A stretch of DNA of 64,000 nt, taken from the IMG/VR virus record IMGVR_UViG_3300042256_000025. One strand, given 5' to 3'. Each line of letters starts with the position of its first letter. Positions within the stretch are counted from its first letter, which is position 1. The notes under the pieces were generated by a model that was given only the letters and a program-made list of their open reading frames with translations, ran no database searches and had not been told where the DNA came from. The position numbers were made by a program, and so were the translations under genes. Source of the DNA: a virus (Duplodnaviria; Caudoviricetes). Below are positions 7,564 to 18,687 of the stretch, piece after piece.

Positions 7564-7597
7564 ATACTCCCCACACCCTTAAGGGTGTGGGGAGTAT
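7564..7597. terminator. Perfect palindrome ATACTCCCCACACCCTT/AAGGGTGTGGGGAGTAT
   Basis: 34-bp inverted repeat just after the ruvC stop. Confidence 0.7.
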
Positions 7598-10959: not shown

Positions 10960-12564
10960 TTATCGCATGGAGATCATTTCCTGCAAGTGTTCCAGTTCAC
11001 GGCGGAACTTAGGATCCACGACCACCCCGTCATGGGGGTCAAGCTGTAAGAAATGGTTGATGGACTCACGGGCCGAGGGTGCCGACTTCGTGATAAAGAG
11101 ATAGGTGTTAACCGTACACTGACTGGCATGCAGTGCGAACGTGGGGGAGGACATTTCCGCCGACTTCTTGGGTCGACCCATACGGTTATTCGATGCCTTA
11201 GCCTGGGGCACAATGGTTTTCGTTACTGAGAAGGGCAAACAATCAGTTGCACTTTCCAGTGTCGTAACCTCCCCATGTCCATTGATATGTTGAATGACGT
11301 TGGTTTTGAATAACTGATCGAAGGTTCGCTCAATGTTCTCAAGCTTCAGTCGATCGCCCGTTAGCTTCACCAACTCAAACAACAGAATTGAGATTGAGAA
11401 CACCACATCGTACATCAGGAACCGTACCGTCTCCAACTGCTTATTGTGGATATCCGCAGGGTCACAATGCATCGTGCGTTCAGTGAAGGTTTTAATGATG
11501 TGTGCAAAGACATCATAGATGTCGCGACAGGGTACCCCTTCATGGGTGAGTTTACGGCGTACCAGATCATCGAGATACGAGTCCACAGAGTCAATGTGAG
11601 CTTCCATCTCTTCCATCGCCTTGCGCTCAGACGACACCTCCGCTTTGATAAAGCGGGGCAAGAGGCGTCGCCAAAGCATGGGGTTATCCACTTGTGATGG
11701 CTCCACCATGTCGGGTTCGTGGTCGATGATGTAAAAGATACCACCAATCGCCGGTGCAATATCAGCGGTCCACTTGTCACGGGGCACGGCAATGCGTAGT
11801 TCGGATGGTGTATACTGCACGTACCCTTTTGCATTAGGACGAATGCCCCGTGATTTACAAATGACCCACTCCTCTGGAGAATAGGTCTCTACGTTAATCT
11901 CATCGTACCCGACACGGACTTCCGCATCAAAGTAACGCTGCAGCCCCTCCGTTAGACCAAACTTACAGAGAATGTAATGAATCAAGAGACTGTGGCGATT
12001 GCGCACGGCATCGCCTTTGCCCTTGCCTTTGATGTTGAATATAGTGGAATATACCGTATCCACGGATACCGACTCCCCATCCGCCTGAAAGCGCACAGGC
12101 ACACGTTGGAACGTAAGTTTCGAACGGGTTACCGGCATGTAGATTCGATCGGGTTCAATACTGAAGATGTTGTCTGCCAGCACTGGTGATACCACAAAAC
12201 TGGATCCACGTACCCGAACAAGTCCACCCCGGCGAATATAGGGGAGCTGTAGGAAACGCGGTTTCAGTTTCTGCCCTTCGAATTCAAACTCATACATGCA
12301 ATGGTACAAGTCTGAATATGCAATCTCATGCTGCCGTTTGCCACGCTTTAAACGAGTCAGCTCCCGTAGCTGTTCCTCTGGAGTCGCGGGACGATACCCA
12401 CAGTAGCGCAGTCCAGGTGGGAAGGATGCACTGGCACAGTGGAGTACCTCGTCCACATACCGCTCAATTCGATCAGACTGCTTGAAGGCCAAACCTTCGC
12501 ATAGGTCTGGATTAAGCCTAGGCTGACTATCCATGCAACGCTTGAGCAATTTACCACCGATCAC
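10960..12564 (-). CDS. Non-virion RNA polymerase beta subunit, N-terminal part (phiKZ gp123-like)
   Basis: FPPGLRY.GYR..TPEE, LPY..RGG...RGS....SPVLAD and HYILCKFG motifs; GTG start with AAGGAG SD. Confidence 0.8.
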   Translation of the reverse strand: MIGGKLLKRCMDSQPRLNPDLCEGLAFKQSDRIERYVDEVLHCASASFPPGLRYCGYRPATPEEQLRELTRLKRGKRQHEIAYSDLYHCMYEFEFEGQKLKPRFLQLPYIRRGGLVRVRGSSFVVSPVLADNIFSIEPDRIYMPVTRSKLTFQRVPVRFQADGESVSVDTVYSTIFNIKGKGKGDAVRNRHSLLIHYILCKFGLTEGLQRYFDAEVRVGYDEINVETYSPEEWVICKSRGIRPNAKGYVQYTPSELRIAVPRDKWTADIAPAIGGIFYIIDHEPDMVEPSQVDNPMLWRRLLPRFIKAEVSSERKAMEEMEAHIDSVDSYLDDLVRRKLTHEGVPCRDIYDVFAHIIKTFTERTMHCDPADIHNKQLETVRFLMYDVVFSISILLFELVKLTGDRLKLENIERTFDQLFKTNVIQHINGHGEVTTLESATDCLPFSVTKTIVPQAKASNNRMGRPKKSAEMSSPTFALHASQCTVNTYLFITKSAPSARESINHFLQLDPHDGVVVDPKFRRELEHLQEMISMR

Positions 12565-12617
12565 ATCACGCTCCTTATTCTGATTTTAGCCTAGATCATA
12601 TCACCTGTACGTGTTAA

Positions 12618-13616
12618 TTAACAAACAACGGCCACGCACCACCGCATAAAGTCAACAACTGCCATCACCCCCTTCATAAAGTATGTAAAGAACGTACTCT
12701 TGTCTTTCATCTTCTCTCGATGGCGTTTATCACTCTCCTCCTCGAATTTACGAAACCTCTCTTTATACGCTTTTCGCTCCTTCTCAAACTCCTGCTCCTT
12801 TTCTCGATACGCTTCCTCCTTCGCAGCCTCCTTTACTTTCTTATCGTGTTTATCCCGTTCCTCTACAAAGGCTCGACGCATAGCTTCTAGCTCCGCGCGG
12901 TCTGGGTCCCGATTATCCTCCATTGCATCGAACCGATTCCGATATAGCCGTATACCGTATTTACCACCCCCCTCTGTAAGCTCCTCTACACTATGTAGGT
13001 GCTGTTCTAGCTTACCGGTTACACTGTCCCGCAGTGTAATCAAAACGCCCTCTTGTGCAGGCGTAGGGTCTCTTGTAGGCTTTAATACGTAAACAACCCC
13101 TCCTAGCTTAACAAACAGATTGGGCCAGACCCTGCGGGGATCCAGTATTTCCACCATAATGCCCAGTGTATGGCGCTCATCCATACGCACCCGCATCTCT
13201 TGCGAGAAACGCGGATGCTTAACCTGATCCACATCTGTGGACAGTGCAATGAACAAACCCAGACACTCATCGTAAATGCCCCCATCCGACTCAGCTAACA
13301 GCTCATAACTGTAAGCGTGTCGAATATGGAAACCGTACACGATACCGCCATTACGGTGTTGCATGCTATCGATATCCTCATAAGGGATACCGCACTCGAC
13401 TAATCGGCTGTGATCTGCCTCCGTGTATTCCTCTACAATCGTAAACCGGCCACGGGTGGGATCATTGAGAGCGGCTCTTTCTGGCTCGACATACTCAATG
13501 GTTCCATTGCCGTCAACAATAACAATCGTTATGCCGGTACGGTTGATATATTTTCGACGATAGGTTGGGGTTGTCCCAACCTCAGTAAATCCGCTTCGTG
13601 CTCTTCTCTCAATCAT
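12618..13616 (-). CDS. Conserved protein (phiKZ gp122-like) with C-terminal coiled coil and hydrophobic tail
   Basis: Lies between the capsid and gp123-like genes; E/K-rich helix; early promoter upstream. Confidence 0.65.
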   Translation of the reverse strand: MIERRARSGFTEVGTTPTYRRKYINRTGITIVIVDGNGTIEYVEPERAALNDPTRGRFTIVEEYTEADHSRLVECGIPYEDIDSMQHRNGGIVYGFHIRHAYSYELLAESDGGIYDECLGLFIALSTDVDQVKHPRFSQEMRVRMDERHTLGIMVEILDPRRVWPNLFVKLGGVVYVLKPTRDPTPAQEGVLITLRDSVTGKLEQHLHSVEELTEGGGKYGIRLYRNRFDAMEDNRDPDRAELEAMRRAFVEERDKHDKKVKEAAKEEAYREKEQEFEKERKAYKERFRKFEEESDKRHREKMKDKSTFFTYFMKGVMAVVDFMRWCVAVVC

Positions 13617-13696
13617 GGTAAGCCTATTAGTAACAGTGACTATTCGGGCGATAGAATTGAAGGTGGAGAAGGCATACGGCGGATGTATGCTTAAGG

Positions 13697-13712
13697 GTAA
13701 TATAGGTTTTCA
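13697..13712 (-). promoter_or_regulatory. Early promoter for the operon containing the nvRNAP beta-N gene
   Basis: Exact TGAAAACCTATATTAC. Confidence 0.8.
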
Positions 13713-13729
13713 ACAAAATTGATACACGG

Positions 13730-13769
13730 CATACTCTCCCTATACCCTACGGGGTATAGGGAGAGTATG
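13730..13769. terminator. 18-bp perfect stem-loop
   Basis: CATACTCTCCCTATACCC-TACG-GGGTATAGGGAGAGTATG. Confidence 0.7.
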
Positions 13770-13861
13770 TAATCGCGTTTAGCGCGGGTCAATTTGAGAA
13801 AGAGACCCAGTCAAGGGGAACTTAATCCCTTAGGCACATCCGAGGATGCTTTTTAAATTGT

Positions 13862-13977
13862 AAAAGAGCTTGTTGTTGGTTAGCCACTACATCGCATTTA
13901 CAGAGGGTAATCAACTAACAAAAGAGCTTGTTGTTGGTTAGCCACTATAACGCATTTACAGAGGGTAATCAACTAAC
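13862..13977. repeat. Tandem repeat, 2 x 58 bp
   Basis: 13862-13919 and 13920-13977 differ only in CTACATCGC versus CTATAACGC. Confidence 0.95.
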
Positions 13978-14025
13978 ATAGGATAGGGTACAGTTAGTAC
14001 CCTATCCCTGAGTCACGCTATACCG

Positions 14026-16185
14026 TTACGGTTTAACGTAGAACTCTTCCAGGTTGGTTACATCGATACGGCCCAGGATCGGCAGGGTCGCAGTGTGCAG
14101 CTCACGCGGCTGTACCTGAATTTCCTGTACAGTAGCACCACCCTGGCTGGAGTTGGCCACTTCGTGAACCAGCGCCGGCATGAACAGGTGAGCACCGAAG
14201 GACAGCGGGTCAACACCACGCTGAGACACACGACGGAAGGATACGTAGATGCGATCACGCATACGAATATCCAGAGACGACACGATGCGGTAGTTACGGT
14301 TTTCACCGAAGGTACGGCTGTCGCCAGACTTCATCAGCAGGCCAGCGATACGCGGGTCAGTACCGACGATGATTTCGTATTCACGGTCTCCACCGGTGAA
14401 CTGCTCCAGGGCCGCCAGGTAACCAGACTCCAGTGCCAGCTTATCCGCCATAGTGGTAACAGCGTCAACCAGCAGAGCACGCAGGTCATCGTAGCCTTCA
14501 CCAGAACGGTTGATGGTTACAACAGACGCAGCGTCCAGAGCACGGGTAGTGTATGTCGGCTTAACGAACAGAGAACCGATCATCGGTGCATTTACGGGTA
14601 CAACACCATCGTTGGCCAGCTGCTTCAGCTGAGCTTCAGCATGCATCAGGGTAGAGACAGAGGCGTTGGAGGAGCGAGTACGCAGAGCCTGTACCAGACC
14701 TTCTACAGTTGCACCGCCACCAGCAGACTTGACCGGACGGACAGAGGCCAGCGGAGAACCGATTGTGATCGGGTAGTAGTAACGGTTGGACTGTGCAGTA
14801 TCGATCAGGATACCTTTCTGACGCAGGTTCGCGTTCACACGGCGAGCTTTCGGCATGTAGCCAACCAGAGCAACTGTGGTAGCTGCAGCCATAGCCTGGT
14901 ATTCTGCACCACTTGTAGCCATCGGAGTCTTGTCAGTACCGACGTACGCTTTACCTACACCTACGCTGTTCGCGTAGACTTCGATGTTGGCGTATTCATT
15001 GTTTGCTACACCGGAGATAGATACCGGCACTTCAACGGTCCAGTCATCACCAGCAGCTACACCCAGCAGAGTGTGCAGGCCCAGGTCAGTGATTGCAACA
15101 CCACCCACGGACTTCATCTTGGCATTCAGGCCCAGTGCGGACTTGAAGGACATGGTCAGGTTGCTGGTGCTACCTTCAGCAGCACGTGTGAAGAGGGCAC
15201 CCGGTACACCGGCGGTGTCGATTTCGAAGACGTGCTTCTTAACAACACTGCCGTCATCAACAGCCACTTCCAGGTAAACAGAGCCCAGTGCAATATTGGG
15301 ATCCAATGCATCGGTCTCATCCTGACCATCGGAACCGATCAGACCCGGGTGGTTGGAGACGGCCAGCAGGTCAGTTTCCACACCGAATTTCAGCGGACGG
15401 GTAACAATGTCCACACCGTTAACAGACAGGGTCTTGTTGCCGACTACTGCAGCGTCAACCAGGAAAGCATCGTTGTTAGCCGCAGCATCAGCACGCGGGT
15501 AAACGTCAGTAGAAGAACCTTCCAGGATAGTGTGGTCTTCGATAGCACGGATCAGGGACTTCTTCTCGAACTCGTACGGCTTGCCGTTTACGCCACGCTT
15601 GGTGCGGTTATACGCGTAAGCGATAGATACGGTCACTTCAGCACCGGATTGAGACGCATCGATTACTTCAGTCGGGAAGAAGGCTTCGTCGAATTCGTTG
15701 TTACCTACTGCCAGGGCGTTCACCAGAACAGAGTGGGACACGAACTTGTCGAAAGAATCCTGAGTGAAGGACTCCATAGACGGCAGTGCAGAATCCACAC
15801 CCGGTACGAACGTATCAACGGTAGTAGCGCCACCGCCGGCTTTACGGGCGGCAATGAAGCTTTCGTGGTAGACTTCCGGATTACCAGCGGCCAGCAGGGT
15901 AATCGCTGCAGCTTCCATGGAAACCTGTACAGCGTGGTCGTTGCCACGGAAGTGTTCGCGCAGTAGGTTTTCCAGACCGGCATCAGCCAGTGCACCCTGT
16001 GCCTGTCCGAAGGTATCTTCCAGGGCATTCAGTGTGGTTTCATCCAGAGATTCCATGGCCACCAGGCTATTGGCGGTTTCAGGAGTAATCAGATCGCCGC
16101 GACGTTCGGCCAGAACACCACTGATCGCGGTAACGATGTCGCTAACACGCGCCTGAGCGCTGTTAATCTTACGGAGCTTGGACAT
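14026..16185 (-). CDS. Major capsid protein (phiKZ gp120-like)
   Basis: 719 aa; F.EAFFPT, N.NLRQKG.LID, IVGTDP.IA..L...GD.RTFG and QPR..H...LPIL motifs; SxE propeptide sites; strong high-expression codon bias. Confidence 0.9.
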   Translation of the reverse strand: MSKLRKINSAQARVSDIVTAISGVLAERRGDLITPETANSLVAMESLDETTLNALEDTFGQAQGALADAGLENLLREHFRGNDHAVQVSMEAAAITLLAAGNPEVYHESFIAARKAGGGATTVDTFVPGVDSALPSMESFTQDSFDKFVSHSVLVNALAVGNNEFDEAFFPTEVIDASQSGAEVTVSIAYAYNRTKRGVNGKPYEFEKKSLIRAIEDHTILEGSSTDVYPRADAAANNDAFLVDAAVVGNKTLSVNGVDIVTRPLKFGVETDLLAVSNHPGLIGSDGQDETDALDPNIALGSVYLEVAVDDGSVVKKHVFEIDTAGVPGALFTRAAEGSTSNLTMSFKSALGLNAKMKSVGGVAITDLGLHTLLGVAAGDDWTVEVPVSISGVANNEYANIEVYANSVGVGKAYVGTDKTPMATSGAEYQAMAAATTVALVGYMPKARRVNANLRQKGILIDTAQSNRYYYPITIGSPLASVRPVKSAGGGATVEGLVQALRTRSSNASVSTLMHAEAQLKQLANDGVVPVNAPMIGSLFVKPTYTTRALDAASVVTINRSGEGYDDLRALLVDAVTTMADKLALESGYLAALEQFTGGDREYEIIVGTDPRIAGLLMKSGDSRTFGENRNYRIVSSLDIRMRDRIYVSFRRVSQRGVDPLSFGAHLFMPALVHEVANSSQGGATVQEIQVQPRELHTATLPILGRIDVTNLEEFYVKP

Positions 16186-16205
16186 TGTGTAATCCTTTTG
16201 TAACG

Positions 16206-16697
16206 TTACATGGAATGGACATAGTGTCCATAAAGTTGAGATTTCATTACTGCATTAACCGGCATGATCAGGGCCATCGCGCAGAAAATGTTTTCCAAAG
16301 TATCCCGCCCATGTTCTAGTGACGATGGGTCTGCATACAATAATGCAGTTTTCTCGTCGACCATTTTACAGGCAAGTTTTTCAAGGAACGGATTAATGTC
16401 GGATACGAGGTCTTCAATCTGTCCGTCCGTGAGGGTTTCACGTAAATGACCGAAAATATCACTGTTTTCAGCTACTGCTATTTCCGCCCAGTTACTCAGT
16501 GCCCCTTTAAGGGGTGAGTGCTCTCGATGACGTTTTTCGAACTGACGGATGAAGTGGTCCGTCTGAAGCCCCACAATCCAATAATCGTTGTGGGTTAGGT
16601 GCTTAAAGAAAACGTCCACATCTGCCACAGATTCCAGTGGCACGTTCTGGGCAGTCAGGGCATTTACGAGTGTCTCGTTTAACACCATAACTTTCAT
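16206..16697 (-). CDS. Head-associated conserved protein (phiKZ gp119-like); likely start MKVMVL at 16697
   Basis: AAGGA SD before ATG 16697; between helicase and capsid genes. Confidence 0.6.
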   Translation of the reverse strand: MKVMVLNETLVNALTAQNVPLESVADVDVFFKHLTHNDYWIVGLQTDHFIRQFEKRHREHSPLKGALSNWAEIAVAENSDIFGHLRETLTDGQIEDLVSDINPFLEKLACKMVDEKTALLYADPSSLEHGRDTLENIFCAMALIMPVNAVMKSQLYGHYVHSM

Positions 16698-18374: not shown

Positions 18375-18687
18375 AGTGAAAGTAAATGGACGTATTGAAC
18401 GACTACAGAACTTTGTAGTCAAGGCATTTTACCCCCGTATTAACGGCGTGCGGAAAATATCACTGGATGCGTGCTATGGCGTCGAGGTCCTCCAAAGTGA
18501 CCACGGTGAGGTAACCGTGTTACTGGTGGATGAGTTAGGTGAAGCCGGTTTATCCCGGTACATACCCCCTAGCACGGAGACGCCCAGTGACAGGACACAC
18601 TGCACTGAGGTCATCGTAGAGAATGGCTATGGGAATACGGTTCATCGCTGGGTACACGGTGGTGGTCGGGGGAAATCGACCCCCTAA
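18361..18687 (+). CDS. Hypothetical protein
   Basis: GGGGAG SD; overlaps the helicase stop. Confidence 0.55.
   Translation: MMRGEVKVNGRIERLQNFVVKAFYPRINGVRKISLDACYGVEVLQSDHGEVTVLLVDELGEAGLSRYIPPSTETPSDRTHCTEVIVENGYGNTVHRWVHGGGRGKSTP

Follow-up and report, generated by a model that had tools for sequence, protein, structure and literature searches.

What does the non-coding DNA directly 3' of the major capsid protein gene do in an uncultured phiKZ-like jumbo phage, and is the tandem repeat that draws attention to it the part that matters? The locus lies in a 64,000-nt stretch (the window) of IMG/VR record IMGVR_UViG_3300042256_000025. Coordinates are window positions, unless they are given for the parent virus record (G000), which is 195.5 kb long with a completeness estimate of 71%. 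All features of the element are read on the minus strand, that is, the sense strand of the capsid gene. The nearest cultured relatives are Vibrio jumbo phages, with a capsid identity of only 40%, and the phage appears to transcribe with its own RNA polymerases, given that one gene in the window encodes an Rpb2-like domain. A blastn search with 1 kb of the locus against 50,697 phage records returned no match. The loci of relatives were gathered from other assemblies by means of the capsid protein and the downstream 332-aa protein; among them, L005, L006, L007 and L009 have capsids that are 94, 72, 65 and 60% identical to that of the window, respectively, and L014 is Vibrio phage vB_VmeM-Yong MS32.

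After the capsid stop codon, the element runs through a terminator-like hairpin (hairpin 1), a fast-evolving leader of 58-nt units, a boxA-like strand, four covarying hairpins (hp2 to hp5) and a long terminator hairpin (T2), followed by the early promoter of the next operon (Table 1). An earlier, sequence-only reading had placed two 58-nt units directly behind the capsid gene, preceded by a hairpin and by a TATG whose G (13977) is the first base of unit 1, and followed by a boxA-like word and four short hairpins; all of these are present, the TATG at 13980 to 13977. The 18-bp closing stem-loop of that reading also exists as a perfect 18-bp hairpin, but it is a free-standing terminal hairpin that closes nothing.

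Table 1. Features of the post-capsid element and the genes that flank it, in window coordinates.
Feature	Position	Strand	Remarks
Major capsid protein gene, 719 aa	14026..16185	-	Pfam PF25620 PhiKZ_MCP, E 4e-159
Hairpin 1 (T1), 11-12 bp stem, 5-nt loop, terminator-like	13980..14008	-	17 nt after capsid stop
Promoter-like word ATCCTATG	13977..13984	-	hairpin 1 3' arm + TATG; predicted start G 13977 by analogy with phiKZ late TATG
58-nt unit 1	13920..13977	-	identical to single unit of one-copy alleles; weak irregular hairpin
58-nt unit 2	13862..13919	-	duplicated copy, 2 substitutions; only in two-unit haplotype
boxA-like single strand GCTCTTTTACAATTT	13855..13869	-	first 8 nt = end of unit 2
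hp2, 5-bp stem + tetraloop	13836..13849	-	4/5 pairs changed on both sides
hp3, GGGA/TCCC stem, conserved loop UUAAGU	13816..13829	-	GGGA/TCCC to GCGA/TCGC in L006
hp4, 6-bp stem, 13-nt pyrimidine-rich loop, conserved core UCUCAAA	13785..13809	-	stem covaries
hp5, 3-4 bp stem	13774..13784	-	one compensatory pair
Long hairpin T2, 18 bp perfect, terminator-like	13730..13769	-	7/18 pairs changed on both sides; 3' base TATG, then CCG
Early-type promoter AAAACCTATATTACC of downstream operon	13696..13710	-	marks end of element
Downstream gene, 332 aa	12618..13616	-	no family match; syntenic in all carriers of the element

The stretch does not encode a protein. No ORF exceeds 33 aa, and the small ORFs at 13691 to 13792 and 13822 to 13914 are not conserved in relatives; because the relatives differ by one-nucleotide indels, coding is ruled out, in agreement with the sequence-only reading, which had seen no meaningful ORF. 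That reading had proposed an Rfam/Infernal search, which yielded no family match: at E values up to 10, only chance microRNA matches on the long hairpin were obtained (E of 0.7 to 10, far below gathering scores). ARAGORN found no tRNA or tmRNA. Relatives with 52 to 54% capsid identity carry three to five extra small ORFs behind the capsid gene (L011, 4335 to 5792; L012, 4341 to 6151), one of which in L012 matches Pfam Tad3 (PF25185), and the post-capsid position is an accessory-gene hotspot in these two relatives. A remnant of such accessory or homing-endonuclease ORFs was rejected for the window: when 12500 to 14100 was searched by tblastn with the additional ORFs from L011, L012 and L014, nothing scored below E 0.19.

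The whole 306-nt stretch folds at -117 kcal/mol, compared with -75 +/- 5.4 kcal/mol for shuffled sequences (z = -7.8), and its conserved part is the ~145 nt that follow the units. RNAalifold predicts five independent hairpins, and 96% of cells are paired across six distinct alleles. Covariation in the capsid-downstream regions of relatives, which the sequence-only reading had named as a check, was found: 14 of 36 pairs are altered on both sides, compared with 3.9 in shuffles (0 of 500 reach 14) and 0 to 5 with slid partners, a result of modest statistics that draws on about five independent lineages. For example, the hp4 stem reads GGGTC/GACCC in the window and L006, GGGTT/AACCC in L005 and GGACA/TGTCC in L009, always around the same loop core. 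Likewise, the base of T2 is conserved (CRTAAG ... CTTATG), and its upper stem is wholly different yet fully paired in L006, L007 and L009, often with a UUCG loop. Conservation extends beyond the stems to the sequence of loops and linkers: over the 100 nt from the boxA-like word to hp5, the window and L005 differ by 12%, against 41 to 57% at fourfold sites. Among close haplotypes, hp2 to hp5 are invariant, and the variable sites lie in the unit, the long stem and the 7 to 9 nt that separate the boxA-like word from hp2. UUCG loops, together with several pairs that are G-U in the capsid sense but would be C-A on the opposite strand, favor an RNA of the capsid sense. These comparisons support the view that the module is a structured RNA of the capsid-sense strand under strong purifying selection in the relatives.

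Searches for short motifs and pairing partners were negative within their scope. A CsrA-type GGA loop motif, which hp2 and hp3 show in the window, has no counterpart in L005 or L006 and was rejected, and a degenerate 17-mer from hp3 had 15 matches in IMG/VR, all in coding contexts and attributable to chance. Comparison by RNAduplex with the start regions of three neighboring genes in five lineages revealed no conserved pairing; a UCUCAA/UUGAGA pairing with codons 2 to 4 of the downstream gene was dismissed as short and explained by protein conservation. Copies of the element, or complements to it, in the 195-kb genome were limited to chance-level 11- to 12-mers and related terminator stems.

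A covariance model of the module recovers the full-length L007 locus (45.7 bits, E 5e-10). In the 195-kb genome to which the window belongs, its only other matches are terminator hairpins, so the element is single-copy. Five uncultured lineages carry it, always behind the capsid gene, and its blocks are still recognizable at 65 to 72% capsid identity. Conversely, the element is absent from relatives at 51 to 54% capsid identity and from six cultured Vibrio chimalliviruses, all of which have one or two terminator hairpins and then an early promoter. We regard the module as a real candidate for a new RNA family in a narrow uncultured chimallivirus clade, although RNAs of this general type have been seen in jumbo phages before.

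The 58-nt units behave differently from the rest of the element. They form a direct tandem repeat with 56 of 58 positions identical, far beyond chance. Phages with near-identical capsids (L002/L004/L030, L018/19, L020-23 and L028) have one unit, always in the unit-1 form, and the two-unit allele of the window recurs base for base in L024, L029 and L031 (four assemblies in all), which indicates that it is real and stable. In L005, the single unit is diverged and 8 nt shorter, and in L006, L007 and L009 the unit is absent, L006 retaining only CTCTGTA. The unit segment is 58% identical between the window and L005 over all columns, 10 of them gap columns, compared with fourfold-site identities of 59% in the capsid gene and 43% in the downstream gene, suggesting evolution at about the neutral (fourfold-site) rate. 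An irregular hairpin had been proposed for each unit; relative to shuffles, it is weak for unit 1 (z = -2.1) and no better than chance for unit 2 (z = -0.8), the L005 equivalent scores z = -0.2, and its pairs are not common to different lineages. The two differences between the units, which had been thought to keep the apical stem, are one-sided and cost one base pair (6 bp to 5 bp, -13.5 to -10.5 kcal/mol), so they are not compensatory evidence. There is no other copy of the unit in the 195-kb genome. Judging from these alleles, the 58-nt repeat is a strain-level or population polymorphism (copy number one or two) of the least conserved part of the element, and the units are not supported as its functional core. 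The sequence-only reading had itself offered a neutral duplication as the alternative; this suits the repeat, which is near-neutral and polymorphic, but not the ~145 nt after it, which are conserved and covarying.

Hairpin 1, whose arms GGATAGGGTAC and GTACCCTATCC (13981 to 13991 and 13997 to 14007) pair perfectly over 11 bp, and T2 both fit a genome-wide class of terminator-like hairpins. About 45 long (10 to 19 bp) perfect hairpins occur in the genome, nearly all of them intergenic (for example, at 7564 to 7597, 13730 to 13769 and 13980 to 14008 in the window). Many have ATACTC(C/T)CCC...GGGAGTAT stems, and YTATGC and/or a T-run follows at a distance of a few bases. Between one pair of convergent genes, the hairpin is flanked by this tail on either side, which suggests that the tail belongs to the terminator signal. 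The phage polymerase probably terminates at long hairpins of this kind; sequence-conserved terminator hairpins have been described for 201phi2-1 and phiKZ (PMC11512511). Since a hairpin followed by TATG(C) is generic punctuation in this genome, this combination alone is no evidence for a special transcript. In L005, L006, L007 and L009, a hairpin of unrelated sequence occupies the position of hairpin 1. Hairpin 1 may terminate efficiently, which would count against read-through into the module.

In phiKZ, the late promoter is TATG, with the G as +1 (PMC4666361). The 7-mer ATCCTAT is the most intergenic-enriched in the 195-kb genome (9 of 10 copies are intergenic, where intergenic DNA makes up 8.5% of the sequence), and 7 copies lie 18 to 42 nt upstream of a same-strand start codon. 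By these word statistics, which use crude gene calls, ATCCTAT(G/A) is a candidate promoter word for middle or late genes of the phage. Its sites in G000 are at 18419, 21461, 28064, 62882 and 147327 on the plus strand and at 82212, 166838, 186977 and 195534 on the minus strand. A separate transcript from 13977, the start proposed in the sequence-only reading, is plausible in the lineage of the window and in L005. However, L006, L007 and L009 have no TATG after hairpin 1, and so across the clade the module is more simply a trailer of the capsid transcript; we put the chance of an independent promoter at slightly below even.

On the downstream side, the AAAACCTATATTACC core is the published phiKZ early core, TATATTAC (PMC7058600), which implies that the next operon has its own early promoter and that the element ends before it. 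The extended early motif, (AA)ACCTATATTAC, occurs 17 times, always on the same strand of the genome. The early-type promoter gAAAACCTATATTACC occurs at 13696 to 13710 of the window and at 16 other sites in G000 (for example, 9026, 13788, 66091 and 104254), and the same 15-mer precedes the post-capsid gene of Vibrio phage vB_VmeM-Yong MS32 (3461 to 3475 of L014).

Several neighboring observations concern other regulatory DNA of this phage. A second long non-coding stretch, outside the window at 166523 to 166858 of G000, starts with ATCCTATGTTA, the 11-mer found at 13984 to 13974, and includes several hairpins, of which two have YTATGCC behind them; a further small RNA may be encoded there. Intergenic DNA is enriched ~5-fold in the palindromic hexamer CTATAG (21 of 65 copies), which often lies 20 to 60 nt upstream of genes. 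Just 5' of the capsid ribosome-binding site, the palindrome GTAACGTTAC is kept in the window (~16200 to 16209, minus strand), L006 (~1098 to 1107) and L007 (~2977 to 2986), although the proteins are only 65 to 72% identical; it is possibly an operator or an RNA hairpin that controls capsid translation.

The explanation we favor, and consider probable, is that a conserved RNA module, single-copy and untranslated, is attached to the 3' end of the capsid gene in one uncultured phiKZ-like subclade and acts as an abundant late trailer or sRNA that binds a specific factor. We infer the ends of the transcript, its abundance, its partner and its effect on host or phage expression as follows. The module would be produced abundantly and late, either as a trailer, when capsid transcription continues past hairpin 1, or, in the lineage of the window, also from its own ATCCTATG promoter at 13977. 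Transcription would end at the long hairpin, leaving a stable RNA of ~190 nt (one unit) or ~250 nt (two units). The single strand and the loops would bind a factor in a sequence-specific manner, the sole concrete candidate being host NusB-S10 on the boxA-like strand. The 58-nt duplication would have little or no function of its own, and the series of hairpins may also protect the 3' end and insulate the next operon.

The boxA-like strand, the best conserved single strand of the element, invites an alternative. It is unpaired in the consensus fold and unique in the 195-kb genome. The word GCTCTTTTACAATTT is identical at 15 of 16 positions to GCTCTTTAACAATTTA of the Escherichia coli rrsH leader, which reads TGCTCTTTAACAATTTATCA; the boxA region of the window, GCTCTTTTACAATTTA, likewise scores 15/16 against the E. 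coli rrn leader, and that of L006, GCTCTTTAACAATT, scores 14/14. The counterparts are TGCTCTTTTACAATTT in L005, GCCCTTTAACAATTT in L007 and only CCTTACAATTT in L009. NusB-NusE recognize 8 nt, (U)GCUCUUU (PMC3177189). This core is kept at 7 or 8 of 8 positions in the window (AGCUCUUU), L005 (UGCUCUUU) and L006 (AGCUCUUU), with A rather than U as the first base in the window and L006. As the core is degraded in L007 (AGCCCUUU; GCCCUUU) and lost in L009, where only TTACAATTT is left, the clade-wide constraint falls on the 3' half of the word, which NusB-NusE do not contact. The spacer between the word and hp2 (13851 to 13860 in the window; also compared in L002, L018, L020 and L005) is 7 to 9 nt long and the most variable spot among near-identical haplotypes, with the variants TTTAAAAAG, TTAGATAA, TACGAAAG, TACGAATG and TTTGACAG.

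Were this strand a working NusB-S10 site, it could drive read-through of the nut or rrn type into the downstream operon late in infection, or serve as a decoy that titrates NusB-S10 off host rRNA transcription. Such a site would account for the rrn matches and for the core kept in three lineages. The order of parts is also suggestive, with a hairpin just before the word in L007 and L009, as in rrn, another 8 nt after it, as in lambda nutR, and a terminator downstream of a word that the genome holds once; moreover, antitermination has been proposed for 201phi2-1 (PMC11512511). Nevertheless, we regard this alternative as unlikely. Because the phage appears to use its own polymerases, it is hard to see which enzyme classical Nus antitermination could target, and no conserved sigma-70 promoter was found: the sigma-70-like match inside the element, TTGACC-17-CATACT, was rejected because its -35-like TTGACC is lost in L005. 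Beyond the decay of the core in L007 and L009, the hp2 loops differ among lineages (CUCG, GUUA and UUCG), so hp2 is not a boxB for an N-type peptide, and no N-like protein was identified. No boxC-like UGUGUGGG was found after the word, nor was a gene for a phage-encoded NusB or S10. Finally, the capsid terminator tail of Vibrio phage Yong reads GCTCTTTATTTC, and by this comparison a U-rich terminator tail may be the origin of the 5' half of the word. We treat binding of host NusB-S10 as a specific lead with odds well below even, not as a finding. Its boldest form would have a nucleus-forming jumbo phage with its own polymerases carry a working host rRNA boxA on its most abundant late RNA, either loading NusB-S10 (or a phage analogue) on the phage polymerase and so switching, in the manner of nut, to read-through from the capsid operon into the one that follows, or soaking up cytoplasmic NusB-S10 and so shutting down host rRNA synthesis; this we likewise hold to be unlikely.

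It is also unlikely that the locus is ordinary punctuation only, with two serial terminators insulating a strong capsid operon from an operon with an early promoter and functionless spacer sequence between them. Long perfect hairpins with a YTATGC and/or T-run tail recur throughout the genome, the more distant relatives, like the cultured Vibrio phages, have just one or two hairpins before the early promoter, and BONAISHI and L011 likewise have two hairpins; all of this is as that explanation would have it. But a spacer would drift, and instead the 100 nt between the boxA-like word and T2 diverge far less than silent sites, the blocks of the stretch remain recognizable in L006 and L007, and the loops and linkers are conserved in sequence besides the stems.

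A DNA-level element, such as a replication origin, a packaging site or an array of binding sites for a phage protein, is very improbable: the element is single-copy and its hairpins are palindromes capable of forming cruciforms, but the G-U pairs confined to the capsid-sense strand, the UUCG tetraloops, which are an RNA feature, and the stems that covary while their sequence is free all speak for RNA. Least probable of all is that the tandem units are an anti-defense RNA that mimics a type III antitoxin or a CRISPR repeat, with copy number under selection as in phiTE pseudo-ToxI: copy number does vary between one and two within one population of samples, and each unit has AAAU in its apical loop, which presumably resembles ToxN cleavage sites, but these ideas of the sequence-only reading lose their basis because the unit is polymorphic, near-neutral, devoid of a conserved fold and missing from L006, L007 and L009, which retain the rest of the element, and furthermore the one or two copies abut without spacers (spacing equals the 58-nt unit length), 58 nt exceeds the known length of antitoxin units, the genome holds no further copy, and an exact search of 185,579 bacterial genomes with a 20-nt core of the unit was negative.

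Transcriptomes have only recently revealed small RNAs in nucleus-forming jumbo phages, and no function has yet been assigned to any of these; antitermination was suggested for such phages, with no signal identified so far. Against this background, the locus is a clean and comparatively well-supported candidate for an RNA family, with covariation, strong constraint and fixed synteny, and its boxA-like motif makes a specific biochemical prediction, NusB-S10 binding. The analysis also corrects the lead from which it started: the repeat that drew attention is a neutral-looking polymorphism, and the interest shifts to the 145 nt that follow it. By-products are provisional words for the promoters and terminators of an uncultured chimallivirus clade.

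Among known systems, phage phiTE reportedly shows expansion of its pseudo-ToxI repeats, and in both cases a non-coding tandem unit varies in copy number among close phages; unlike pseudo-ToxI, however, the unit described here is not conserved, has no host counterpart that we found and reaches two copies at most. In lambda nutR, boxA (CGCTCTTA), a 9-nt spacer and the boxB hairpin come just after the cro stop codon, and the present element similarly starts directly after the stop codon of the upstream gene, with a boxA-like word and a small hairpin, set apart by a few variable, A/T-rich bases, ahead of terminators. It differs in that the hp2 loop is not conserved, no N-like protein was identified and the polymerase is another one. 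The gammaproteobacterial rrn leader (boxB hairpin-boxA-boxC) resembles the element in the word itself, GCTCTTTAACAATT being identical in L006 and one base off in the window. As in the rrn leader, a hairpin lies a few nucleotides before the word (L007 and L009), and structured, untranslated RNA comes after the unpaired word. In contrast to the rrn leader, the element lies behind the capsid gene of a phage that appears to have its own RNA polymerases, no boxC and no conserved host-type promoter were found for it, and the core has decayed in 2 of 5 lineages; the likeness is one of sequence and layout.

Two further comparisons involve small RNAs. Like the bacterial sRNAs derived from 3' untranslated regions (PMC9438474), the module shares the terminator of an abundant mRNA and might be released by processing of read-through transcripts or start at an internal promoter close to the stop codon, whereas no seed-target pairing was found for it in the 195-kb genome or at the starts of the three neighboring genes. 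The jumbo phages 201phi2-1 and phiKZ make small RNAs, detected by ONT-cappable-seq (PMC11512511). Those are mostly derived from 5' untranslated regions, and the conserved one precedes a tail gene, whereas the module trails the capsid gene and has no sequence similarity to them. Like them, however, it is a short untranslated unit between a phage promoter-like site and a strong hairpin terminator, non-coding and conserved in both sequence and fold between related jumbo phages.
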